Source: Mobula hypostoma
Lineage: Eukaryota
Length of the DNA: 64,000 nucleotides
Direction: 5' to 3'
Assembly (NCBI RefSeq): GCF_963921235.1
Contig: NC_086108.1
Coordinates: 84,880,001 to 84,944,000, forward strand
Shown: piece after piece, positions 11,099-64,000 of the stretch
Numbering within the stretch: position 1 is the first letter of the stretch
Layout of the letters: every line of letters starts with the position of its first letter
Program-made: the position numbers and the translations under genes
The notes under the pieces: model-generated
Told to the model about the DNA's origin: nothing
Databases searched by the model: none
Seen by the model: only the letters and a program-made list of their open reading frames with translations

Positions 11099-11209
11099 CT
11101 CTGACGTACAAGTTGGCTGGAGCAGAGTAACGTGTTCCAGCACTGTTAGTTGTTACACATTCATATTTGCCCTGGTCAGACTCTTCACTGTTCTCAATTT
11201 GCAAGGCAC
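11099..11209 (-). CDS. PTPRF: LAR-RPTP constitutive exon, Ig2 C-terminal part ([37 protein letters not shown])
   Basis: 111 nt, phase 1-1. Acceptor ttgttatacag|GT, donor AGAG|gtaaga. Contains the Ig F-strand motif D-x-G-x-Y-x-C. Confidence 0.97.
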
Positions 11210-14200
11210 CTGTATAACAACACAGACAAATCAGGTCACTTCTGATCCATTAACAGGCTATCCAAATTTGAGGCATTAATATGGTGCAGCATAATGGTCT
11301 ACAAGTGCAAAAGTTCAGGACTCCTTTTTGAGTTTCTCCTAACTTGCAGAAGAATGAAATGAAGACATATTATTGATATTTGATTGCACACTTGGGCTCT
11401 GTCTTCAGTTTTTTAACTGGTATGTACCTACAAAGATTTCAGCATATGTAGTGAGTAGAAAAATAAATTTTAAGAATTGGTTTTTTTCCAATGATCACAC
11501 TCCTTAAAAAGGTACAAATCTTCATTCATGAAACTGAACTGACTTTGAAACAGGACTCTATTGTCTCCACTAACCCTCAGCCAGCTTCAGAATTCCATAC
11601 TGTTGTAGTTCTTACCTGACTGAATAAATATGGATCAGTTTTATTGACATACCTTGTGTTTCATCCTTATTCTACACAAACAGTACATGGTGGAGTTGGT
11701 ACTTCAACCCATACATGACAAGTTACATGAACATATGATGGATATTCGACTCCTTACTCAGCTACTGAGAAAGCTTGTATGATTATTCTAATGCAACAAT
11801 CAGCAGTGTAATGACCAATTTGTGTTCAATAATTTAACTGGATGTTGATTTTTTTAAAAAGATTTGCCTAAAAATACCTTCATGATGTATAATTTTCTAT
11901 ATGCTGTCATGTTTAACATAAAGAAAAACATTGAATAAAACTAGATTTTCACAGTTTAAACAGTTTACATCATCACTATCTTGAAAACATTTTAACTGCA
12001 TCTGTGTGGTCACATTTTTGTTTTATAGAAAACAAAATTGTATCAGCAATACAAAACAAAGATAACCAATTTATTTACAAGATGCAGGCTTGCTCTGTTG
12101 AATAGGATTATAGTTCCTTATAGTAATTTTTTAAAAAGAAAATGTAGCCAATATAACAAGTAAAACACTGAGTTTAGACATTAGAAGTTTGGCTGAGTCA
12201 GACCCTGGGGATTGTCCAGACTTAATCAGCAGAAAGTAGTCTCCATTTTAGATAGTTTTATTTTTTTTGTATAAAGTCTGAAGGAATTTCAATATCTTAT
12301 GTACAATTTATAAATTATTTGATAACAGTAAAAGGAAATTCTAATAGCTCATGGAGTTCCATTTCATGTGGGAAGATAACTGTTCTGGGATATTTCCCCA
12401 TGAGTAATTGCAATCTCTTATTTTAAAAATGTATTATTTTATTACAAAATGCTTTGTGTGAAATAATTTACAAATATGTTTTAGAGTAATTTATCATTGT
12501 TATATCATTTTCTGGCTATATAAGATAATTGAAACTGGTAAATCTTTCTCTCTCAAATCAGTAGGCTAATCTTAATTATAATATTTCGAAATGATCTTTA
12601 TTCACCCACACTAAGCTGTAGAACCTTTTTTGAAGTTGTATATTACATGCTGAAAATTAAATCCTATTGTAGTTTCTATTTTAACCGTAAACAAAAGTTT
12701 TGAGGTGCTTTTTTTTTGGTTATGCACTTTAACCAAAGATAGGGAAGAGAAGAATGTGTAAGAAAAGAAAAGCAATAGCAAAATTATTTGTTTGCAGGGG
12801 AGGGCTGTGAAACTAAAATCTAGCATAGAACTTGGTTGCTTCCCTCCTTTTTGAAATTTACAGCAGTAAGTAATTAATTCAGAACAGGGTATCTTGCACA
12901 AACTGAAAGACAGTAGTTCTTGTGCAGTATGCTATCTAATAAGTTTTATCAGCAATGCAGATTGCTTTGTAAATTTTATAAACTGATGTCAATTATTAGT
13001 CTCATTTAGTTTTAAAATGGAACAAAAAGGAATCTGTAGCTTTAGGAGATAAAATATATTCCAAATACGGCATATGTACAAAATTAGTATGAAAATATTA
13101 GAAAACCTCTGTGAACACCAATAATCATGCCACTTTGGTTTGGTAGGTCTTAAATGTTTTGGAGAATCTAACTTCACAATTTTAGAAATTCAAAAGAGGT
13201 AGACAAATAAAGAGACATTGTAGTAAAACATAGTTTTCCAACTGAATAGTAAAGTATAAGATACTACAGGTCTAAACTGGCAGAGATGTTAACTAACAGA
13301 ATGCTGCCAAAAGCTCCCTTACTGATCAAAGCTTTAAAAAAATGCAGGATACTTCGAACAGATAGCAATTTAGTAGGTCAGAACTGAATTAAGCAACTAG
13401 GAATCATTAGTGAAACATATCTAAACATATTTTGGGACAGGTTCATTTTTGATATCCCAATATGACTTTCAACTAAAAATATTTGGGAACAAGTTGCAGT
13501 ATCCTAAGGTAGTATCCTACAGGGTGTATTTACATAAAATAAATCAAATTCTTCTAGAAAAGAGTAGGAAAACACTAAATCTGGGAAACAAACTTGACGC
13601 ATCAGCATAAACAGTCTATCCATAACAAGATAAAACATTACCTTGGATTCTTCCTCTGAATGTGCATTTAAGACTTTCTTTTTTAGTTTATATAATCCAC
13701 CAACACCTCTGTTGTGGCTACCTTGTTAAAATAATTAAAATGTCCATACGTCGTGCACCCTCAGATGCACACAGAAAGTGTCATTTGAGCAATATGATAC
13801 TCGTGAGTTCACAATAAATTGTTTTTGTGATCAATGAGCCATTTCAATGGCCATCAAGGAGTATGAAGCCAAGAGCTCTTTCTGTCTGTAGACAGGTTCA
13901 AAAATTATGGTAAAGCAAATGCTGTTGCTGTTTAAAACATCAAATAGCATCAATGAGACAATATTTCCCTAATTAATCACCTTACATTCAAAGGTTGCCA
14001 GAGTTTTACCCAATCTGCAATTTTTTGAGAAAAGAATGCAATAACCTTAACATGGATCTCACATAATTTTTCTTAGCCACCAGCGATGGGGAGCTGTCAT
14101 TTACAGAATTCTGGCTGGTTTAAATTTTAATGTTTAAGAAAAATGAAAACCCAAGAAATGAACTACTTCATTATCCCCCAATCTTTTCCCACTAAAGTTT

Positions 14201-16251: not shown

Positions 16252-17632
16252 TGATTTCTTTGATTTTTTTTAAAAGAATAGAACTACTGTATTGTCCAAC
16301 TTCTGAGATGTTATCCACTTTTTCTTTGCAAGTTAACAATTATGGACTACATAAGGTTACCACATAAAGATACTGCAACTTCTGAAACAATCATAGCAAC
16401 TTTTAGGCATGTTAAAAGTACTGTTAAAATACCTGCAGATTCATAGAAGAGTATTTGTCACTCTTAATTTATTTATTGGTACAGCTATTGTAACCATTTA
16501 GTTTTACAATAACACACTTTACACCACATTAACAGTCTAGGTTATGACTATGACAGTTCTACCAATACATTTCTTTATAATATTTCTTAATTGAAACAGA
16601 TCTACTCTTTTAATTCGTATAAAGTATATAGCAATGTATTAAAAATATAAATAGTTTAATGATTTAAATGAAATGAATGATTTAATTGGCAATGCTATGC
16701 AAATGATGGTTAAAATGGCTCCAATGCCTAGATACTTTAATGTCACCAGGAGGTGGAACACTATTTCTTGACCTCAATACTGTAGAATAGGTATGAAGTG
16801 GATCCTCCTCAGATACGCAGTTTTGTCCAGATGCTGCCTGGGGGTTACTTGAGTTGTGATATTCACACTACAATTTGGTATATAAACTTACTGGCTGTAT
16901 TTTTGCCAATATATGACAAATGTTAGATATATTTTAGATGGGCAATCTGTTATGAAACCATGTTTGCACAAGAATGATTGTAAACCAGTTAAACTGAGCC
17001 TTAATGAAGGTGGCTAAAAGTAATGATTTACAAACACTGCAATAGTTCACATTTAATTATAGAATGTGCTGGAAGCAAGGAGTCCATAAACATCGAGTTG
17101 GTTTTAAAGCAGGACTTTGTGTGTGCGTGGGGGGGGGGGGGGTTCAAAAATTATTTTAGAAACTTAGTCAGTTCAAGTATTTGTCCCGCATTGTTAGCAC
17201 TCAGAATGGCTTGTCCTCTTTTATACTGTCCTTTCAAAATTCTTTATTTTCAATTACTGATCAACATGCTTATTAAAAGTAATTATTATTCAGTGTTTAC
17301 CTCTCTGCCATCAGTGGATATACCATTTTATCAAGCCACTGCTAAAAAAAAAATCATCAAATCTCTAGTTATTTCTCTGATTAAGTTTTCAAATTTATGT
17401 TATATATATTGTTTTACTCCGTACTTCATTTAATTACAATAATTTGATTAACCCTCATCTAACCTCAATGAAAACATTTCATTTCCTAATCACTTATCTC
17501 TCTTTATACCTCTTTGGTTTGATATAAATCCTTTGAAGAATTCTTGGCATTCCTTTTAATAGTTTTTACCCTAATTATATAAAGGCTATTGCAATATTTA
17601 TTCAGCAGGTCGGGCAGCATCCGTGGAAACGA

Positions 17633-17672
17633 TCAGTCAATGTTTCGGGCCAGAACCCTTCGTTAGGACTGA
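17633..17672 (-). ncRNA. Degenerate type I hammerhead ribozyme motif
   Basis: tcagtc-CTAACGA-agggttctggccc-GAAA-cATT-gactga. The core carries a G-to-A mutation. Confidence 0.6.
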
Positions 17673-18033
17673 AGAGGTAAGGGGCAGAGGCCCTATAAAG
17701 AAGGTGGGGGCAGGGTGAGAAGGAGAAGGTTGGTAGGTTCCAGGTGAAAAACCAGTGAGGGGAAAGATAAAGGGGTGGGGGAGGGGAAGCAGGGAGGTGA
17801 TAGGCAGGAAAGATGAAGAAGGAATAGGGGAAAGCACAACGGGTAGTAAAAGGAGGCGGAACCATGAGGGAGGTAGTAGGCAGCTGAGGGAGGGGGCAGA
17901 GTTCCGCTTCCTTCTACTACCCATTGTGCTTTCCCCTTAAACACGAGGAATTCTGCAGATGCTGGAAATTCAAGTAACACACAAAGTTGCTGGTGAGCGC
18001 AGCAGGCCAGGCAGCATCTCTAGGAAGAGGTAC

Positions 18034-18069
18034 AGTCAACGTTTCGGGCCGAGACCCTTCGTCAGGACT
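18034..18069 (-). ncRNA. Minimal type I hammerhead ribozyme motif (intact core; sense in host pre-mRNA)
   Basis: agtc-CTGACGA-agggtctcggccc-GAAA-cGTT-gact. Confidence 0.85.
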
Positions 18070-18127
18070 AACTGAAGGAAGAGCTAGTAAGAGATTTGGA
18101 AGTCTCTTACTAGCTCTTCCTTCAGTT

Positions 18128-18163
18128 AGTCCTGACGAAGGGTCTCGGCCCGAAACGTCGACT
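18128..18163 (+). ncRNA. Minimal type I hammerhead ribozyme motif (intact core)
   Basis: agtc-CTGACGA-agggtctcggccc-GAAA-cGTC-gact. Predicted cut after 18159. Confidence 0.85.
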
Positions 18164-18386
18164 GTACCTCTTCCTAGAGATGCTGCCTGGCCTGCTGCAT
18201 TCACCAGCAACTTTGATGTGTGGTGCTTTCCCCTATTCCTTATTTACCTTTCCTGCCTATCACCTCCCTGCTTCCCCTCCCCCACCCCTTTATCTTTCCC
18301 CTTACTGGTTTTTCACCTGGAACCTCCAGCCTTCTCCTTCCCACCCTCCCCCCACTTTCTTTACAGGGCCTCTGCCCCTTCCCTCT

Positions 18387-18426
18387 TCAGTCCTGATGAA
18401 GGGTTCCGGCCCGAAACGTTGACTGA
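18387..18426 (+). ncRNA. Minimal type I hammerhead ribozyme motif (intact core)
   Basis: tcagtc-CTGATGA-agggttccggccc-GAAA-cGTT-gactga. Predicted cut after 18420. Confidence 0.85.
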
Positions 18427-18564
18427 TCGTTTCCACGGATGCTGCCCGACCTGCTGACTTCCTCCAGCGTGTTGTGAGTGTTGCTTTGACCCCAGTATCT
18501 GCAGAATATTTTGTGTTTGCAATATTTATTCTATGTGCATCTATTGAAGAAGATTCATTGATGC

Positions 18565-18818
18565 AATTGAGGAACAGCTTCTTCCCCTCTGCCATCTGAT
18601 TCCTAAATGGACATTGAACCCTTGAACACTGCCTCACTTTTTAAATATGTTATTTCTTTTTTGCACAATTTTTAATCTATTCAATATAGATATACTGTAA
18701 TTGATCTATTTATTGTTATTATTTCTTCTATGTTATGTATTGCATCGAACTGCTGCTGCTAATTTAACAAATTTCATAACATGCTGGTGGTAATAAACCT
18801 GATTCTGATTCTCATTCT
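18565..18818 (+). mobile_element. Rex1/Babar-like LINE 3' end
   Basis: aggaacagcttcttcccctctgccatc (RNSFFPSAI), then a 3' UTR ending aataaacctgattctgattct. Confidence 0.7.
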
Positions 18819-20057: not shown

Positions 20058-20075
20058 CTCTGATTGGTGTACCAC
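20058..20075 (-). CDS. PTPRF: Microexon meA6 (18 nt, encodes G-G-T-P-I-R)
   Basis: cctcaccag|GTGGTACACCAATCAGAG|gtaaga. Phase 1-1, matches the known meA6 peptide GGTPIR, with a long upstream pyrimidine tract. Confidence 0.95.
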
Positions 20076-20645: not shown

Positions 20646-20654
20646 CAAAGGATT
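20646..20654 (-). CDS. PTPRF: Microexon meA3 (9 nt, encodes E-S-F)
   Basis: ttctcag|AATCCTTTG|gtaagt. Consensus donor, phase 1-1, correct position, resembles PTPRD meA3 (ESI) and PTPRS ETF. Confidence 0.85.
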
Positions 20655-25430: not shown

Positions 25431-26149
25431 TTCTTCAAATATCTGAATACACTAGCATTTGCGATCAGAATTATGTACATGTCCAGTGCACAGATGGAGG
25501 CCAAGAGCAGTATGCTAATAAAGTTTTCAGTTTCTAAGCAATCAGCCAAACTATCCTCAATGTCATTTTACAACATCCTCTTTCCAAAATGTTAATTCAA
25601 TTTTCACCTTTGTTCTAATTTTCTAAATGTTATTTTTCTACAATAAAACTTCTCTGTAACCTATTAAAGCCTCTATTAACATCATATGCATTGTTTTACT
25701 CGTATCTGTCATATCTATTTCTTCCACAGAGCATTTTATTAGATTTGTCAAGCACAATTTCCTATTCTGAAAGTGGAAGTGACCATTTCTAATTTCTCTA
25801 TTAGAAATCCCCACTTCCTTTCTATTACTTTCACCAAAACTTAAAGATGCTACCACTTTGTCTCTATTCTTGAAATTAGATAATACAGTGGCTGCTATCA
25901 GTCTTCTGGGGCCTTATTACAGGGAGAGGTTGGCCAGGCTAGGACCTTATTCTTTGGAACATGGGAGATTGAGGGATGAACTTGTAGAGTCTAAATACAA
26001 AAGAACCATAACATTTCTTTCCTATGATATCACCCCCATATTTAGAACTCTATTTATAGAGTTGCAAGATGTTTTCCTGTTACTATTTAAAGTTTCTGAG
26101 TCTGCCTCATTATCTCTTTTTGGTATCCTTCTTTAATGTCTCCTAAAGT

Positions 26150-26640
26150 CAGGGAGTAATACAGCATGGAAATAGGCCCTTCCACGCAACTTCATCCATG
26201 CCAACCATGGTGCCAATCTAAGTTAGTCAAATCCCCCTCTCTCTCCCTCTCTAAACCTCTTCTATCCAAATTAAAAGATATTCTTATCCAAATATCTTTC
26301 AAATGCTATTATTGTACCTGCCTCAATCACATCTCCAGCAGCTCATTCCAAATACATACCATCCTCTGTGTGAAGAAGTTGCCCTCAGGTCACTGTTAAT
26401 CTTTTATTTCTCACCTTAAATTCCCAAGGAAAAAGACTATGTGCATTCACCCAATCTCTATCCTCGTGATTTTATACACCTCTATAAAGTCACCCCTCAA
26501 TTTCCCCACATTCCAAGAAATAAATTCTTAACCTGGTCAAACTCTCCCTGTAACTCGTATGATAAAGTGCTGGGAGCTTATATTCTCTTTGCAATCTTTC
26601 CAGTTTAATTATAACTTTCCTACAACAGGATGACCAGAAT
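26150..26640 (-). mobile_element. CR1 LINE 3' fragment
   Basis: Reverse complement of the CR1 RT tail and 3' UTR (atacagcatggaaataggccc; ctctgtgtgaagaagttgccc). Confidence 0.8.
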
Positions 26641-35205: not shown

Positions 35206-35640
35206 ACCTCATTCTCAAAGAGTTTTGGCGTCAATATTGAACCTACAATTGTCCATTATTAAGAAGCTTGGGGAACTTGCTCAGCCAGACATGGAAGTTA
35301 CTGGTTACACATTATCTTCCACATTAGGCTTATAATTGCACAAATCACGTACGACTGTTGGGACAGATATTGATGTATATGTGAGTACCAAAACTTGATA
35401 ACATCAGCCGTGCTTAAGCCAGAATCCTACTTGATCTTAGGCAGTTTCTGGCTTTAAAAAAGACCTAATTTTCTGGAATGATGCACTCCAGCAGTTTGTA
35501 GGTTGTGCACAGCCATGAAATTGGTCTACAGTATTCTGGTTTTTTGGTTTGTTCTGTTGAACAGATTTATGATTTTTAGCCATTATGGATGTTGTGACAG
35601 AATATGGTTCAAGGAACAAAAAAAGGTATGTATCTCTGAT

Positions 35641-37395
35641 AAGCAACACACATAAAAGTTGCTGGTGAACGCAGCAGGCCAGGCAGCATCTATAGGAAGA
35701 GGTACAGTCGATGTTTTGGGCCGAGACCTTTCGTCAGGACTAACTGAAAGAAGAGATAGTAAGAGATTTGAAAGTGGGAGGGGGTGTGGGAGATCCAAAA
35801 TGATAGGAGAAGACAGGAGGGGGAGGGATAGAGCCAAGAGCTGGACAGTTCATTGGCAAAAGGGATATGAGAGGATCATGGGACGGGAGGCCACGGGAGA
35901 AAGAGAGGAGGAGGGGGGGAGCCCAGAGGATAGGCAAGGAGTATAGTGAGAGGAACAGTGGGAGAAAAAGGAGAGAGAGGAAAAAGAATAAGGTCTCCCA
36001 GTCTGCGTCGGGTCTCACCAATGTACAGAAGGCCGCATCGGGAGCACCGGACGCAGTATATCACCCCAGCCGACTCACAGGTGAAGTGTCACCTCACCTG
36101 GAAGGACTGTCTGGGGCCCTGAATGGTGGTGAGGGAGGAAGTGTAAGGGCATGTGTAGCACTTGTTCCATTACAAGGATAAGTGCCGGGAGGGAGATGGG
36201 TGGGGAGGGGCAAATGGACAAGGGAGTCGCGTAGTGAGTGATCCCTGCTGAAAGCGGGGGGGGGGGGGTGGAGGGAAAGATGTGCTTAGTGGTGGGAGCC
36301 TGTTGGAGGTGGCAGAAGTTATGGAGAATAATATGTTGGACCCGGAGGCTGGTGGGGTGGTAGGTGAGGACAAGGGGAACCCTATTCCTAGTGGGGTGGC
36401 AGGAGGATAGGGTGAGAGCAGACGTGCATGAAATGGGAGGGATGCGTTTGAGAGCAGAGTTGATGGTGCAGGAAGGGAAGCCCCTTTCTTTAAAAAAAGG
36501 AGGACATCTCCCTCGTCCTGGAATGAAAAGCCTCATCCTGACAGCAGATGCGGCAGAGACGGAGGAATTGCGAGAAGGGGATGGCATTTTTGCAAGAGAC
36601 AGGGTGAGAAAAGGAATAGTCCAAATAGCTGTGAGAGTCCGTGGGCTTATAGTAGACATCAGTAGATAAGCTGTCTCCAGAGATAGAGACAGAAAGATCT
36701 AGAAAGGGGAGGGAGGTGTTGGAAATGGACCAGGTAAACTTGAGGGCAGGGTGAAAGTTGGAGGCAAAGTTAATACAGTCAATGAGCTCAGCATGCATGC
36801 AGGAAGCAGCGCCAATGCAGTCATCGATGTAGCGAAGGAAAAGTGGGGGACAGATACCAGTGTAGGTTTGGAACATGGATTGTTCCACAAAGCCAACAAA
36901 AAGGCAGGCATAGCTGGGATCCATACAGGTGCCCACGGCTACACCTTTAGTTTGGAGGAAGTGGGAGGAGCGAAAGGAGAAATTATTAAGAGTAAGGAAT
37001 TTACTACCATTCAGGGCCCCAGACAGTCCTTCCAGGTGAGGCGACACTTCACCTGTGAGTCGGCTGGGGTGATATACTGCATCCAGTGCTCCCGATGCGG
37101 CCTTCTATATATTGGCGAGACCTGACGCAGACTGGGAGACCGTTTCGCTGAACACCTACGCTCTGTCCACCAGAGAAAGCAGGATCTCCCAGTGGCCACA
37201 CATTTTAATTCCACCACCCATTCCCATTCTGATATGTCTATCCACAGCCTCCTCTACTGTAAACATGAAGCCACACTCAGGTTGGAGGAACAACACCTTA
37301 TATCCCATCTGGGTAGCCTCCAACCTGATGGCATGAACATTGACCTCAAACTTCCGTTAATGCCCCACCTCCCCCTCATACCCCATCAGTTATTT

Positions 37396-37426
<31 letters not shown>

Positions 37427-37797
37427 TTATTCTTTTTCTCTCTCTCCTTTTTCTCCCTTTGTCCCTCTCACTATACTCTTTGCCCATCCTCTGGGCTCCC
37501 CCCCCCCCTTTCTCCTTAGGCCTCCCGTCCCATGATCCTCTCATATCCCTTTTGTCAATGAACTGTCCAGCTCTTGGCTCCATCCCTCCCCCTCCTGTCT
37601 TCTCCTATCATTTCGGATCTCCCCCTCCCCCTTTCAAATCTCTTGCTAGCTCTTCTTTCAGTTAGTCCTGTCAAATGGTCTCAGCCCGAAACATCGACTG
37701 TACCTCTTCCTATAGATGCTGCCTGGCCTGCTGTGTTCACCAGCAACTTTTAACGTGTGTTGCTTGAAATTCCAGCATCTCTGGATTTCCTTGTGTT
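35641..37797. mobile_element. Penelope-like element (RT + GIY-YIG endonuclease) with inverted duplication
   Basis: Minus-strand RT with YIDD (ORF 36490..37047). GIY-YIG VIYCIQCSRCGLLYIGET present on both strands. Inversion junction at about 37000. 14-bp TSD tatgtatctctgat (35627-35640, 37798-37811). Degenerate hammerheads in both termini. Confidence 0.95.
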
Positions 37798-39148
37798 TAT
37801 GTATCTCTGATTACAGATTTCTGAATCAGATATCTAAATGGTCCATTAACTTCACTTTCGCACTATTTATTTATTTATCCATCTTTCATCATGCTTTCAG
37901 AAAAAAATGGTGGAACAGTATGTTTTATTCGGAAGTCTTACTGCTAATTATAGTTACTGACATCTATTGTATTGAATGTTACAAAGCCAATTATATTGAA
38001 AAAATGCAAATGAGTTATTGAATATAGATGCAATTCAACCACAATTCAAAAATCAAGATATCAAATATTCAGCTGTATTGTAGCTAAATCCAATGTTCCC
38101 ATTATATCAGAACCATTAAATGAGAAAACCTGGAAACTAAGCAATATTCAGTCAAGAATTTCTATGATATATTACAGCAGACTATCATTTGAGTTACTGT
38201 GACTACCTTTGCACAAGTCTTTTATACCAGTGTGTGCGTCTCAATGTTGATCAATAGATGAAACTATGTGGGATATACACACACATACACAAAAACAGAA
38301 TTTCATGACATATTCGAGTGATGATAAACCTGATTTTGATATGGGACTCTATTGTTAACTGAGAGTGGGAAGGGGGCAGGGAGAGCGGAATGATGGTTTG
38401 GAAAAGGGGAAGGGGGAGGGGAGCGAGCAGGAAACACCAGAGAGACATTCTGTAATGATCAATAAATCAATTGTCCGGAATCAAATAACTCCTTTGCTGC
38501 CACCTGTCCCACACCCCTCCAGTGGTGCTCGAGCCTCACCACTCCCAACATCCTTCTCTCCCGCCAGATTTACAAACTCGCTCTCTGCTCCACATTGACA
38601 AATACACTTAGGCACCCTAGCTCAATATTATATTATTTTACACACACACAATTGCATGACAGGTTGGGAATAAATTCCCTGTATTAAAATCCACCTGCAA
38701 TTAGGGTTGGCAGATGCTCAGTTATCTTTTAATCTAATTAATTCTGACTTATTTGTATTTTAGTCTGACCAGAAGAAGGTGCCTCATTTTTAGAAGTCCC
38801 TCTAGTGTTTGATTATGAAACTACTCAGTTTCCATGCTCAAGTGAGCAGCAAAGCACGAAAAGAAAGTAGAAAACACTATGTTTTGATATACATGTGCCA
38901 AATAAAGTTCATCTTTATTATTTTAATCTAATACACTCTCTGAAATGGCAATAAAGAATTTAAGACAAGGAAGGGGAGAACTAGTAGTCGTCTCGAGTGA
39001 AGTGAGATAGGAGGTAGAAACTGGCAAGAGGAGGATACTGCAAAGATACAGCCACTGGTAGTTGAGCAAAAAGCCAAGAAATGGCATCCAAGCTGAACAG
39101 AAATAAGGAAAATTCCCTGGATCACAGAGAAACAACCACGCTATATCT

Positions 39149-39246
39149 GTTCAACACTCACAACACGCTGGAGGAATTCAGCAGGTCGGGCAGCATCAGT
39201 GGAAAAGATCGATCGATGTTTCGGGCCGGAACCCTTCGTCAGGACT
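39149..39246 (-). mobile_element. 98-bp Penelope 3' terminus containing a hammerhead motif
   Basis: 11-bp TSD acgctatatct (39138-39148, 39247-39257). Minus strand agtc-CTGACGA-agggttccggccc-GAAA-cATC. Confidence 0.88.
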
Positions 39247-39289
39247 ACGCTATATCTATTAGTTGGAGAAAGTCAGGAAGTTAAAGCAA

Positions 39290-43859: not shown

Positions 43860-44380
43860 TTGTCTATCCACGGCCTCCTCTACTGTAAAGATGAAGCCAC
43901 ACTCAGGTTGGAGGAACAACACCTTATATTCCGTCTGGGTAGCCTCCAACCTGATGGCATGAACATTGACTTCTCTAACTTCCGCGAGGCCCCACCTCCC
44001 CCTCGTACCCCATCTGTTACTCATTTTTATGCACACATTCTTTCTCTCACTCTCCTTTTTCTCCCTCTGTCCCTCTGAATATACCTCTTGCCCATCCTCT
44101 GGGTCACCACCCCCCCGTCTTTCTTCCCGGACCTCCTGTCCCATGATCCTCTCGTATCCCCTTTTGCCTATCACCTGTCCAGCTCTCGGCTCTATCCCTC
44201 CCCCTCCTGTCTTCTCCTATCATTTTGCATCTCCCCCTCCCCCTCCAGCTTTCAAATCCCTTACTCACTCTTCCTTCAGTTAGTCCTGACGAAGGGTCTC
44301 GGCCTGAAACGTCGACGGCGCCTCTTCCTATAGATGCTGCTTGGCCTGCTGCGTTCACCAGCAACTTTGATGTGTGTTGC
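43860..44380 (+). mobile_element. Penelope-like 3' fragment (GIY-YIG tail + pLTR)
   Basis: MSIHGLLYCKDEATLRLEEQHLIFRLGSLQPDGMNIDFSNFR. Same family as 37003-37797. Confidence 0.92.
44282..44317 (+). ncRNA. Minimal type I hammerhead ribozyme motif (intact core)
   Basis: agtc-CTGACGA-agggtctcggcct-GAAA-cGTC-gac. Confidence 0.8.
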
Positions 44381-45833
44381 AAGAAAAAAAATGTCGTCTT
44401 TGATTGCAATTTGTTTTATCAGACCCCTACGCACTGACTGGAATATAGAATCACAAGAAGTTTCAATGCATTTAGAATGCAATGATGTCTTTTTTTGTAG
44501 TAGGTCATCTGTAGCATTTGCCATTAATTAAATGTGTTTTTCTGTGTTTCAACTCAGAATGGCTTTGGTCACTAAAATGCTGAAAGTTTAAGGTGATAAT
44601 AGCACAGCAAGAAAAGAAAATAGCATCTGGGACCAAAGGGACCTGGACAACTAACAGGAAATCTCTTTAATCAATAAGATTTAACATTGGGAATAAACAC
44701 TGGAAGGATCAAGGTGAAGAAAATGAGAGTAGGTGAATTCAATATAAATCAACTACAGAGTTCTGACAAGAGGAGAAAAACAGATAATTATAAACACAAC
44801 ATTTCAAAAAGCAGTTGTAAAATACAAAGTTTGAAATAAGAATTCAAAGTTATTAATTTTTAATGTCAGAGGGGTTGATTGCCAGACATTAGCACTTATG
44901 ACTTACTGCAGTACAGTGAGTTTAATGGGCAATGGTCAATAAAGCACTGAGCTCTTTGAAAGCTGAAAGCTAAGATGCATTGGATTTATTCAACCAGCAC
45001 TTCCCATATCCACAAGCTCTACCAGCAAGAAGGACAAAGAGAGTGCATACATGGGAAGATCACTGACTACAGATTTCCTTCCAAGTCACGCAGCATCATG
45101 GCTTGGAAAAACAGTACATCATCCACACATCAATATCACAGGGTTTAAATCATGAAACATTTTTCACAACAGCCCTGTTTGAAAATCTCCAGAGGACTGC
45201 AGTGGTTCGGAGGAAGTTTAAATGGTAAATGGGAATGGGGAATAAATGCTGTTCTTTTGAGCTCCTTAAAATGAATGAATAGAAGTCCCACTCTATTGCA
45301 CTCTTGCTCACAATTAACAAATAAGGAATGAGTATTCTGGATACATCTGTTTGACCTGCAAAGCATTAACCAATTATTTTTGTGCTCAGGTCTGTAATTC
45401 ATTTCATGAAAAGAAATCTTAAGGTATGAATATATATTTCTCATCTAGGAAAAGCAATAATCACTGAGGTCCGTAAGTGAACAGTACAAACTATTACCTT
45501 ATTCTATAAGCGGGATCGACATGCTGATATACATAGTAAATTGTCAATCTAATGAACAGTGTGCTTGAAAATAACCACAAGCGGGCAGCAGAATCCTCTT
45601 AATCTCTGTACATCATTCAAAAGATCAGGAAGCCTCTAAAAGGGATGAGGATTGATGTGTGAATGAGAAGAGATGCAACTATGCCAACCTCTTGAAAAAA
45701 AACAAATTGAAATACAAAGCAGCATTGCTGCACCAGTGACCATTGAAGAAAGAGACAGTGTTCAGCCCTTCAAAGAAAATGAAAGGGGTAACTGACAGCA
45801 GGATCAGAATCAGGTTTAGTATCACTGGCATTT

Positions 45834-49869: not shown

Positions 49870-50577
49870 TAGTCTAAATTAAAGATCATCATACTTTGCT
49901 TCATGTGTTTGATACCAAACTCATAAGAACAAAAGAGGTATGTAGCAAAAGAGTAGGGTGTGTGCATGATGCAGCTTCAACTCCACTACATAACAATTCA
50001 CTCAGTGATCAAAATATTTAGTGGATATAAAACTGTATTGCTGTTAAAATGAACATAAACAATCTTTAAACATTCAATGCTCTGAATCATGAAATTGTGG
50101 TTCCAAGCTCTATTAGTTGATCCTGACCAAATACTAACTGGTGGGAATTAATTACCCTGGACTTGTAGCAAAGAGTCCAATATTCCACAGCACCCTACTC
50201 CTCAACCTGGCAGCAACTGCATAAACACATCTATTCAGTTTGCAACACTTGTTAGCAGGACCTTAAGCATGCAAATATCAATCACTCAGCAGATACAGAC
50301 ATCATTTGTCAGCATATAATAGTTGGAGGTTCCTGGTTTCAATGTAACTGTATTCCAGCATGAAAGCAAAAACTTCACAACAGGATTAAATGTAGGATCT
50401 GTACAAAGAGGCCAGCAGGAGGTGGGAAAAAAAGGATACCTATTTTATGAATCATGCAAAATGTTCTTAGCTTTTGCGATCACTACTGCAGTAAACATTG
50501 CATAATTCACAGAAGTACAGCATCCTGTATATTGTTAAAATGAGTAAAGACAACAGGTATGCAAATTTCATTAAAGT

Positions 50578-50838
50578 CATAAACACAAGAGATTCTGCAG
50601 ATACTTAAAATCCAGAGCAACACATACAAAATGCTGAGGAACTCAACATGACAGGCAACATCTATGAAAGGGAATAAACAGTCAACGATTCAGGCTGAGA
50701 CTCTTCATCAGGACTGGGAAGGAAGGGGGAAAAGAAGCCAGAATAAGAAGGTGGGGGAGGGGTAGGTTCAATCTGGCAGGTGATGGGTAAAGCCAAGTGA
50801 GGAGGAAGGTGGAAGGTGGGTAGGTTGGGGAGGGGGAT
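50578..50838 (-). mobile_element. Penelope pLTR fragment with degenerate hammerhead
   Basis: 12-bp TSD tttcattaaagt (50566-50577, 50839-50850). cagtc-CTGATGA-agagtctcagcct-GAAT-cGTT-gactg. Confidence 0.85.
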
Positions 50839-51774
50839 TTTCATTAAAGTTGTTGGCGTGTAATGCACTTTTTTTTGAAGCATCTACTGACAGGCAGTCA
50901 TCCATCTCTCAATAAAACTAAAACACAGATTTTGAATAGAAATGTATTAAAAGATGGGAAAGTTTCTGCTGTCGTGAAACAAGGATGTCTGCAGAAATAT
51001 CAACTCACATAACATTCCTGTATTTAATACTCAAAGCATAGATGTCCAAACAGTAGATGGTCCAGCAATTTAGGTAGTGTCATCACTATGCTTTACAATA
51101 TCTTAATGACAACCCCAAATATTTAGTTTCTATAGGTTAGTAACCAGAGATTACAACGAATTTATTTGTGGTACGTTTCACTAAATGGTTTAGAAACACA
51201 GATGAAGATTTAAATGCTCCTGCACTATTATACAGTGCTTTCTGCATGCCATTAAGGGAGCAAATCTGCGCACAGACCTCCAGGTATATATATATATATA
51301 TCCTCACCAGTACTCTGAACAATTGTAACAATATTTTCCATATTTTTAAACTCCAACCCTTTTCCAATAAAAGCCAATGTTCCCACAGACAATGACTGAG
51401 ACTGAATGTGAAACCCCTCCTCCCACCCCCCCAACCAGCTCATGAAGTCCCGGGATCGGAGGTCCACGGAAGTCTGAATATCAAGGCCCAAAAGGTCAAA
51501 GTTCTGTGATCATTGAGTTCTGGGGTTAATACCTAGAGGTCCGCATAGTTGAATCAAGAAGTCGAAGACTAAAGTAACTGAATCTGGAGTTTGAGGCCCA
51601 AAGGTTGAACTCAGTCAACTCATCTTGGTCAGAGGTCTGCAAGTCTGGCCAGGGACTGGGGGTTAGACATCTGCAAGTCTGAGAGTTCAGGGCCGAGGAC
51701 TGGAGGTCAGAGGCCCAAAAGTGGCCTACCCTGGGTGGGGGTAAGAATAGGATGACATGGCTGAGGACCTGCTG

Positions 51775-62258: not shown

Positions 62259-64000
62259 CAGTGCCTTGAAAAAGTATCCAGTACCCACAACAATTTTCAC
62301 AGTTCACTGTCTCATTTTCTAAATTCAAAAATATTTTGAAGTAGGATTTTTTGAGCTAATTCACAAAACACTGTGCACCATGTCAAGTCAAAAGAAAAAT
62401 ATCCAACACCTATCAACAAATTACTAAAAATTTAAAACAAAAATTGTGAGGCTTAAAAAGAATTCATCCTCTTTGTAATTTCCTCAGGTGCAATACACTG
62501 GTATTCCCTTACCAACTCACCAAATTTGTTGATGTAGAAAATTGAAGGATCACCTGTTTCCAATGAGTTGATAAGAATAAATCACCCTCTCTCTGAGTTC
62601 CAACAGTGCGGTAGATTTTCAACAGACCAAACCAAGATGAAGACAAAAGAGCATTCAAGACTGGTCAGGGAAATGATAATAGAGAAGCACAAATCTAGGG
62701 AAGGGCACAAGACCACCTCATAGGCATTGAACATACCTCAGAGTTCAAAGCAGTTCACTGGGAAAAAATATGAAACCACAGCCACACTGTCTAGGTTAGG
62801 CCACCTCTCTACACTTAGTCTCCAGAGAAGAATGGCACTTTTAAAAGAGGCCACTGTGATGCCAACAGTCATTCTTATGAGCTGCAGAAGTCAGTCGCTA
62901 CAACTGGCGATAAAGTTCATGGCTCCACAATCTCCAAGGCCTTGCACAAAGAGTATTTTTTTAATTAAATACAATCATGAACAATAGCCAGATCAGAAAT
63001 GCTGATCAAGTCAACTAGTTCAATCAGATGGTTCACTGCTGCTCAGTGATAGAACACAAAAAAATCCTATGTACAATTAAGAAACATTTAAGAATAGTAG
63101 AAATACTGGAGTCATGATGATCATGATGAAGTCTGCTGGCGAGAGACATTTATACACGTGCTGTCCTCCATAATATAAAAAGATTATGGATAAAGGATAA
63201 AGTTGCAGGGTGACAAAACGTGGCAGGAGCACTTGGAATTGAAAACTAATCCCTACTGGGAGAAAACAGCACCTGTTCTTTCCGCACTGTTCTCCAGCAG
63301 TTTAAGGAATAAGTCCAGTATGTATGGAAGAGTGGCAAGGAAGAATCCCTGGCAAAAAAAATACATCCTTGCCCATAAAGACTTTGCAAAGCATCACTTA
63401 GAAGATACTCTGAAGATGTGGAAGGAGATCTAGAGGTCGGATGAGAGTAAAGTGTAAATTTTTGGCCTGAACACAAAACGCTATGTGGCGTAAATACAAT
63501 ACGAGGGGTGATTGATAACTTCGTGGCCTAAGGTAGAAGGAGTCAATTTCAGAAAACCTAGCACATTTATTTTTCAACATAGTTCCCTCCCACATGTACA
63601 CACTTAGTCCAGCGGTCGTGGAGCATATGATCCCTTCTTTGTAGAAGTGGTTCACAGTAGGGTTGATTGATAATTTCGTGGCCTAAGGTAGAAGAAGATG
63701 AGTTATACAGCTCTTGTTACATGCACGTGCAGCTCAACTCCTTGAATGAAAATGCAGAAAGTTTGAAGTTTCTCCTCATTTCCTTCTACTTTAGGTCACA
63801 AACTTATCAATCACCCTTGTTGTGGTCCACTTTCTGGAGTTCCAAGACGCCGACTTCTACAAAGAAGAGATCCGTATGCTCCACGACCGCTGGACTAAGT
63901 GTGTAAATGTAGGAAAAATAAATGTGCGAGGTTTTCTCAGATCGACTCCTTCTACCTTAGGCCATGAACTTATCAATGACCCCTCGTACTATGCATCTAC
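62259..64000 (+). mobile_element. Tc1-like transposon with interrupted transposase, running off the window
   Basis: Left TIR cagtgccttgaaaaagtat. Transposase MKTKEHSRLVREMIIEKHKS from 62637, resuming MYGRVARKNP...FAKHHLED...SDESK...FGLNTKRYVWRK. Confidence 0.9.
63502..63986. mobile_element. Mariner-type MITE inserted in the Tc1 transposase
   Basis: TA TSD (63500-63501, 63987-63988). TIRs cgaggggtgattgataacttcgtggcctaaggtagaagg and its reverse complement. A second internal TIR pair is present. Confidence 0.92.

Follow-up and report, generated by a model that had tools for sequence, protein, structure and literature searches.

Inverted, 5'-truncated copies are described as 'often' present among Penelope-like elements (PLEs) (PMC8557442). 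Work on Adineta describes inverted pLTRs, an optional 31-bp tail, TSDs and the insertion of one Penelope into another in opposite orientation, including a Penelope with an inverted pLTR, a 31-bp tail and a 9-bp TSD that is itself a secondary, reversed insertion in another Penelope (PMC3846280). The palindrome analyzed here, in an intron of PTPRF (LAR), shares with Pen2a_Av in Pen3 (Arkhipova et al. 2013, PMC3846280) and with the general PLE layout (Craig et al. 2021, PMC8557442) its head-to-head arms, a tail of ~30-40 nt on one arm only, a short TSD and reversed nesting. Unlike Pen2a_Av and Pen3, both elements at this locus are pLTR-only stumps, and the outer short arm lacks ~60 nt and not 30-40. 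Because both elements are reduced to such stumps, their arms adjoin and are predicted to form a compact branched hairpin.

Cervera and De la Pena (2014, PMC4209133) also described minimal type I hammerheads at the termini of metazoan PLEs, including pairs that are separated by 100-700 bp and have one member on each strand. The motifs found here share with that description the type I order, the absence of helix III, palindromic cut-site nucleotides, an extra base before helix II, a G-C closing pair and the spacing of opposite-strand pairs. Their helix II falls short of the 7-8 bp given for the Schistosoma motifs in the same work, and these candidate motifs differ from the published ones in that three of the four copies are changed at or near the core.

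Two further systems bear on what such a structure might do in a transcript. Inverted Alu pairs likewise produce retroelement-derived duplexes in intronic pre-mRNA (Lev-Maor et al. 2008, PMC2533698; Denisko et al. 2026, PMC13019027). In those pairs the arms are two independent copies, whereas the arms here come from single insertion events, lie neither beside a 3' splice site nor on either side of an exon, and have only a hypothetical effect on editing or splicing. The CPEB3 intronic self-cleaving ribozyme is a conserved, HDV-like ribozyme that is active as a monomer. Both loci place a ribozyme motif in the intron of a neuronal gene, as a potential competitor of splicing (PMC10919898), and, unlike the CPEB3 ribozyme, the motifs here are decaying, dimer-dependent, multicopy and predicted to be locked in a duplex.

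We consider it very likely that the palindrome is the product of two successive, 5'-truncated insertions of endonuclease-bearing PLEs, each left as a pLTR-only two-armed stump. This is a known pattern and, at this locus, most likely a neutral one.

Two nested two-armed insertions in an intron of PTPRF

The window (the whole stretch of Mobula hypostoma DNA that was analyzed, 64,000 nt) carries on its minus strand part of a gene that was named by its best protein match. Both exons that flank the region of interest encode protein identical to PTPRFa of Mobula birostris (64/64 and 37/37 aa), and PTPRF (LAR) is therefore the most fitting name for the gene. PDB matches had at first suggested PTPRD, which was dropped in view of this exact match, as mammalian PTPRD is 94-95% identical over the same two exons. 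When the first 700 residues of the protein were compared with the window (E<=0.01), only those two exons matched and no further one. Between them lies a candidate meA6 microexon, bounded by AG/GT and encoding GGTPIR, a peptide named in earlier work on meA inserts (PMC8711739).

28426-28617, minus strand: PTPRF Ig2 exon, upstream of meA (span of the protein match)
20058-20075, minus strand: candidate meA6 microexon of PTPRF (GGTPIR)
11100-11210, minus strand: PTPRF exon downstream of meA6 (span of the protein match)

The intron after meA6 is 8847 nt long. It contains the palindrome 1526 nt downstream of meA6, which agrees with the 1.5 kb originally given; another 6378 nt separate the palindrome from the acceptor that follows. 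From left to right on the forward strand, the palindrome consists of the following parts.

17589-17603, plus strand: left copy of the outer TSD, 15 bp, its last 3-4 nt microhomologous to the short-arm end
17604-17900, minus strand: inverted short arm of the outer element, shorter by 57-60 nt at the 3' end
17826-17837, minus strand: one copy of the inner target 12-mer, uninterrupted, which preserves the empty site within the sister arm
17901-17937, plus strand: 5' part of the outer element's complete arm, through the left inner TSD
17926-17937, plus strand: left copy of the inner TSD, 12 bp
17938-18097, minus strand: complete arm of the inner element, with a 3' tail of 34-40 nt at ~17938-17977
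18100-18222, plus strand: inverted, tail-less arm of the inner element, without the last 34-40 nt
18223-18234, plus strand: right copy of the inner TSD, 12 bp
18235-18516, plus strand: 3' part of the complete arm of the outer element, with its natural 3' end
18517-18531, plus strand: right copy of the outer TSD, 15 bp

The outer unit is a two-armed PLE 3' stump between TSD copies that are identical at 15/15 positions. Its arms are 93% complementary over 239 nt (17602-17840 / 18220-18457), with an additional 37 bp of complementarity between 17826-17862 and 17901-17937, and positions 17863-17900 of the short arm have no partner and would form a loop. Within this unit, in opposite orientation, lies a second PLE pLTR family with a TSD identical at 12/12 positions and arms that are ~95-97% complementary (17977-18097 / 18100-18221). 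Its target site starts 25 nt past the outer inversion point (17900/17901). The inner 34-40 nt tail is present on the complete arm only, as expected for the optional 30-40 bp tail of PLEs. By a rough estimate, a TSD match this good would arise by chance within +-10 nt of the two ends with a probability of ~3e-6 for the outer and ~2e-5 for the inner element. The original prediction had proposed exactly this arrangement, an outer pLTR insertion with an inverted arm and a second, different pLTR hairpin near its inversion point, and both levels were recovered with TSDs of the predicted lengths.

The order of the two events can be read directly from the locus. Because the sister arm of the outer element is free of the insert and contains the 12-mer target once, the inner element is the later of the two insertions, with a TSD that is a genuine duplication. 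Arm divergence agrees with this order, with 17/258 aligned positions (6.6%) differing between the outer arms and 4/119 (3.4%) between the inner arms. The uninterrupted sister arm, which keeps the empty site, makes the locus a textbook specimen in which two PLE insertions within 1 kb can be placed in order.

Assemblies from short reads are known to have difficulty with inverted PLE structures (PMC8557442), which raises the question of a fold-back chimera created during assembly. Such an artefact would be expected to have identical arms and to lack TSDs. The arms instead differ at the 17 and 4 positions given above, six of them of CpG type, as well as by indels; TSDs occur at both levels, an empty-site copy is kept in the sister arm, and the window contains no N. 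The tail asymmetry is also the same as in an independent insertion elsewhere in the window. We therefore regard an assembly artefact as extremely unlikely. A search of sequencing runs with the right flank listed 24 runs, of which 20, from 12 studies, contain part of this flank, and no RNA run was among those listed with it; this listing counts neither for nor against the structure.

Under the preferred reading of two successive insertions, the GIY-YIG nuclease would make a staggered cut in the target, and each free DNA end would prime reverse transcription close to the 3' end of the element. Priming would take place at the extreme 3' end for one of them and further inside the element for the other, the latter aided by short microhomology, after which the two cDNAs would be joined head to head and the target duplicated during repair. 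Later, the second element would have inserted, reversed, into an arm of the first. We infer that one arm was primed from each end of the staggered cut; short matches between target and short-arm end, 3-4 nt in the outer element and 5 nt in the inner element, fit such a scheme. In vitro work ascribes the tail to reverse transcription that starts at two sites (PMC11167929). Self-priming on an antisense template, the alternative preferred by the authors of the Adineta study (PMC3846280), may also apply here. A counterpoint to our reading is the outer short arm, which lacks 57-60 nt, compared with the canonical tail of 30-40 nt; the solo copy at 39.2 kb stops near the 30-nt tail boundary.

PLE families and related copies in the window

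The inner family is represented by a further two-armed PLE insertion 17 kb away, at 35641-37797 (35627-37811 with its 14-bp TSD). The inner pLTR is 86-92% identical to both ends of this insertion, whose arms differ from each other at 22/338 positions. Its short arm and that of the inner element stop at points only a few bases apart, which leaves this insertion a tail of 32 nt. Between its outward-facing pLTRs are a broken RT (YIDD) and then GIY-YIG fragments. Because Pfam was silent on all five of the window frames from this element (35.9-37.7 kb), its identity was taken from homologs, and the fragments share 43-56% identity with a protein in which Pfam recognizes RVT_1 and GIY-YIG domains. 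A CX2-5CxxC linker between RT and endonuclease is, together with phylogenetic placement, a criterion for the Neptune clade of PLEs; the CxxC part of this linker is present in a window fragment, and the full motif is present in the homologs P0019, P0058 and P0100. A PLE origin and nesting, as proposed at the outset, are supported by the TSDs, by the two-armed pLTR form and by this tie of the inner pLTR family to RT and GIY-YIG.

The palindrome itself contains no ORF, and none linked to the outer family was found in the 64-kb window. In the region of the hammerhead and the 3' end, the two families are only 75-81% identical.

Additional repeats were observed in the window. A solo stump of the outer family at 39138-39257, sense to the gene and with an 11-bp TSD, ends near the tail boundary, and its truncation point coincides exactly with the first base of hammerhead helix I. 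A 3' fragment of the inner family at ~43880-44390, antisense to the gene, has a canonical hammerhead core and ends at the tail boundary; no TSD was found for this fragment. An older pLTR copy at 50566-50850, with a damaged hammerhead core and a possible TSD of 12 bp, represents a third family that has diverged further. Inverted structures of other kinds were also noted, including a 490-bp self-inverted element (69%) at 63500-63988 with terminal inverted repeats flanked by TA, which resembles a Tc1/mariner-type miniature element, and an inverted pair of 74 nt (25917-25989 / 26480-26553) whose copies are 78% identical and 490 nt from each other, located between the microexons and the Ig2 exon.

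Predicted fold and hammerhead motifs

The plus strand of the palindrome is predicted to fold with -785.6 kcal/mol (z = -52), a value reached by none of 20 shuffles, and the transcribed minus strand with -775.1 kcal/mol, with 798 of 961 nt paired. The predicted structure is branched, with two stems, the outer of ~240 bp and the inner of ~120 bp, and a hairpin to the side. A fold-back of ~0.9 kb had been anticipated; a long pre-mRNA duplex is indeed predicted, but as a branched structure and not as a single 0.9-kb stem. On the sense strand the predicted duplex comprises ten helices of 15-97 bp, the longest running 97 bp without interruption, and includes 177 paired A; the stretch 18235-18457 has 70 sense-strand A. 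The local arm duplex is also predicted to be more stable (-245 kcal/mol) than pairing with copies 17-26 kb away, across the microexons (-206 to -216 kcal/mol). Since a second fold-back, with an arm duplex of -630 kcal/mol, sits in the upstream intron of PTPRF, such duplexes are not singular in this gene.

Each of the four arms carries one minimal hammerhead-like motif, giving two per strand.

17634-17670, minus strand, sense to PTPRF: minimal hammerhead motif with a G5A core change, a non-palindromic loop and U17
18033-18069, minus strand, sense to PTPRF: minimal hammerhead motif with intact core boxes and palindromic loop, U17
18128-18164, plus strand, antisense to PTPRF: minimal hammerhead motif, fully canonical, the only such of the four
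18389-18425, plus strand, antisense to PTPRF: minimal hammerhead motif with intact core and palindromic loop, U17

These motifs were called by eye, as matches to the published minimal type I descriptor. The CUGANGA and GAAA boxes, the UH site, the palindromic loop and the extra base before helix II are present in three of the four, the exception being 17670-17634. Rfam returned no hammerhead at gathering score over the whole window, and at E<=10 over 17500-18600 hammerheads were likewise absent from the 27 matches, which were all below gathering score and mostly to hairpin-type miRNA models. The hammerhead call thus rests on the manual descriptor match. Two hammerheads per strand, as originally predicted, are therefore upheld as far as four motifs fit the descriptor, but Rfam is silent and only the motif at 18128 is fully canonical. 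A G5A change inactivates hammerhead cleavage, and U17 slows it. From its sequence, the motif at 17670-17634 is predicted to be inactive. Because 18128 is fully canonical and 18389 has only U17, the pair capable of forming an active dimer would lie on the non-coding strand.

In the pre-mRNA, the palindrome would fold back co-transcriptionally and bury both sense hammerheads. The predicted fold pairs 18033-18069 with 18128-18164, and the complement of this sense motif is transcribed before the motif itself. Freeing the two sense hammerheads from the full palindrome would cost ~68 and ~52 kcal/mol. Forcing the hammerhead fold at 18069 is calculated to cost 68 kcal/mol in the full palindrome, 66 kcal/mol in a nascent transcript ending just past the 18069-18033 motif, and 3-5 kcal/mol without the partner arm, and the hammerhead fold inside the duplex is predicted to be negligible. 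These values favor, in silico, the earlier proposal that the sense hammerhead at 18034-18069 is masked, and masking as an automatic outcome of the inversion is a sound prediction.

Whether the masked motif has any activity worth masking is doubtful. The suggestion that it might otherwise cut the intron is opposed by published activity data, in which cleavage by a single minimal hammerhead was undetectable and dimers had low activity (PMC4209133), and in which a PLE hammerhead from Anolis cleaved only with the protein of the element and reads ending at the cut site were absent from the data reported (PMC11167929). The nearby sense dimer partner is also damaged, and an unmasked solo sense copy at 39246 in the same gene has intact core boxes and an 11-bp TSD.

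The same observations weigh on the idea that the inverted arm is a built-in silencer, in which sense PLE hammerheads harm introns and intact ones persist when they are masked. Apart from the unmasking cost and the order of transcription, this idea draws on the distribution of motif copies, of which the 64-kb window contains nine. Core and palindromic loop are kept in 1/5 sense versus 3/4 antisense copies (Fisher p = 0.21, not significant), fully canonical motifs number 0/5 sense versus 2/4 antisense (p = 0.17, not significant), and the single sense motif that retains the core as well as the palindromic loop is the duplex-locked one, which hints at a trace of selection. Core positions have decayed in 4/9 copies, as would be expected for unselected remnants, and the lesions are mostly at CpG sites. 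The unmasked copy at 39246 persists, and Naiad PLEs also form inverted arms, though without canonical hammerheads (PMC8557442). Together with the weak or protein-dependent cleavage cited above, these points make a silencer very unlikely.

A broader version of this idea holds that the mirror arm is an automatic antisense lock, that intact sense ribozymes occur mainly in fold-backs, and that the edited duplex tunes LAR meA3/meA6 in one ray lineage. We consider this combination quite unlikely. Should fold-backs shelter intact sense hammerheads genome-wide, this would be indirect evidence for cutting in vivo by PLE hammerheads, which is treated as an open question in the literature (PMC4209133, PMC8557442), and the finding would carry greater weight if the duplex altered LAR microexon choice.

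Editing and splicing of the PTPRF pre-mRNA

The preferred reading, two insertions of most likely neutral effect, leaves room for by-products of the duplex. A long intramolecular duplex on the transcribed strand, as is predicted here, is what an ADAR substrate requires, and edited intronic Alus mostly pair within one intron (PMC2533698). By analogy, the PTPRF duplex is likely an ADAR substrate and is probably edited as a by-product. As a counterpoint to neutrality, a duplex of such high predicted stability could possibly entail both editing and some cellular consequence. The locus also shows that rays have a one-step source of long intronic dsRNA, comparable to the inverted Alus of primates. 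A survey of titles and abstract openings found no literature on PLE duplexes or their editing in sharks or rays.

The same origin could be combined with a measurable shift in meA3/meA6 inclusion, caused by ADAR or other dsRNA-binding proteins, by altered splicing kinetics or by shortening of the intron, on the model of inverted Alus at some human exons. Besides the very stable duplex predicted on the transcribed strand, this proposal can point to RABL5, in which a pair of inverted Alus within a single intron shifts splicing of the downstream exon (PMC2533698), and it would matter because meA inserts govern ligand binding in the LAR family (PMC8711739). The geometry at this locus argues otherwise. 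The RABL5 Alu lies 24 nt before the exon and its effect weakens with added distance (PMC2533698), and loop-out skipping requires arms on either side of an exon (PMC13019027), whereas both arms here lie in one intron, 1526 nt past meA6 and 6378 nt before the next acceptor. The inverted-Alu type of arrangement, with arms flanking an exon or tens of bases from an acceptor, is thus not found. The fold would shorten the 8.8-kb intron by only about one tenth, and pairing across the exons is predicted to be weaker than local pairing. The sense strand of the palindrome contains two words resembling 5' splice sites (18305 and 18110) and no strong acceptor. We judge an effect on microexon inclusion to be quite unlikely, and most likely the palindrome has no role in the choice of meA6.

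The microexons of this region were also searched for in their own right, with peptide names following PMC8711739. A strict search of the window for ESI-type meA3 and ELRE-type meB returned no match. Neither an ESF nor a GGTPIR insert was present in any of the seven chondrichthyan PTPRF proteins examined. A looser search yielded eight 12-nt candidates, none of them meB-like (0/8), and two 9-nt candidates, of which one, ESF at 20654, is plausible.

20646-20654, minus strand: candidate meA3-type microexon of 9 nt (ESF), bounded by AG/GT, from the looser search

The ESF candidate (20654-20646) has a pyrimidine tract and lies 571 nt upstream of meA6. If it is a true microexon, ray PTPRF would have a split meA3 and meA6 layout, as PTPRD has with ESI and GGTPIR.
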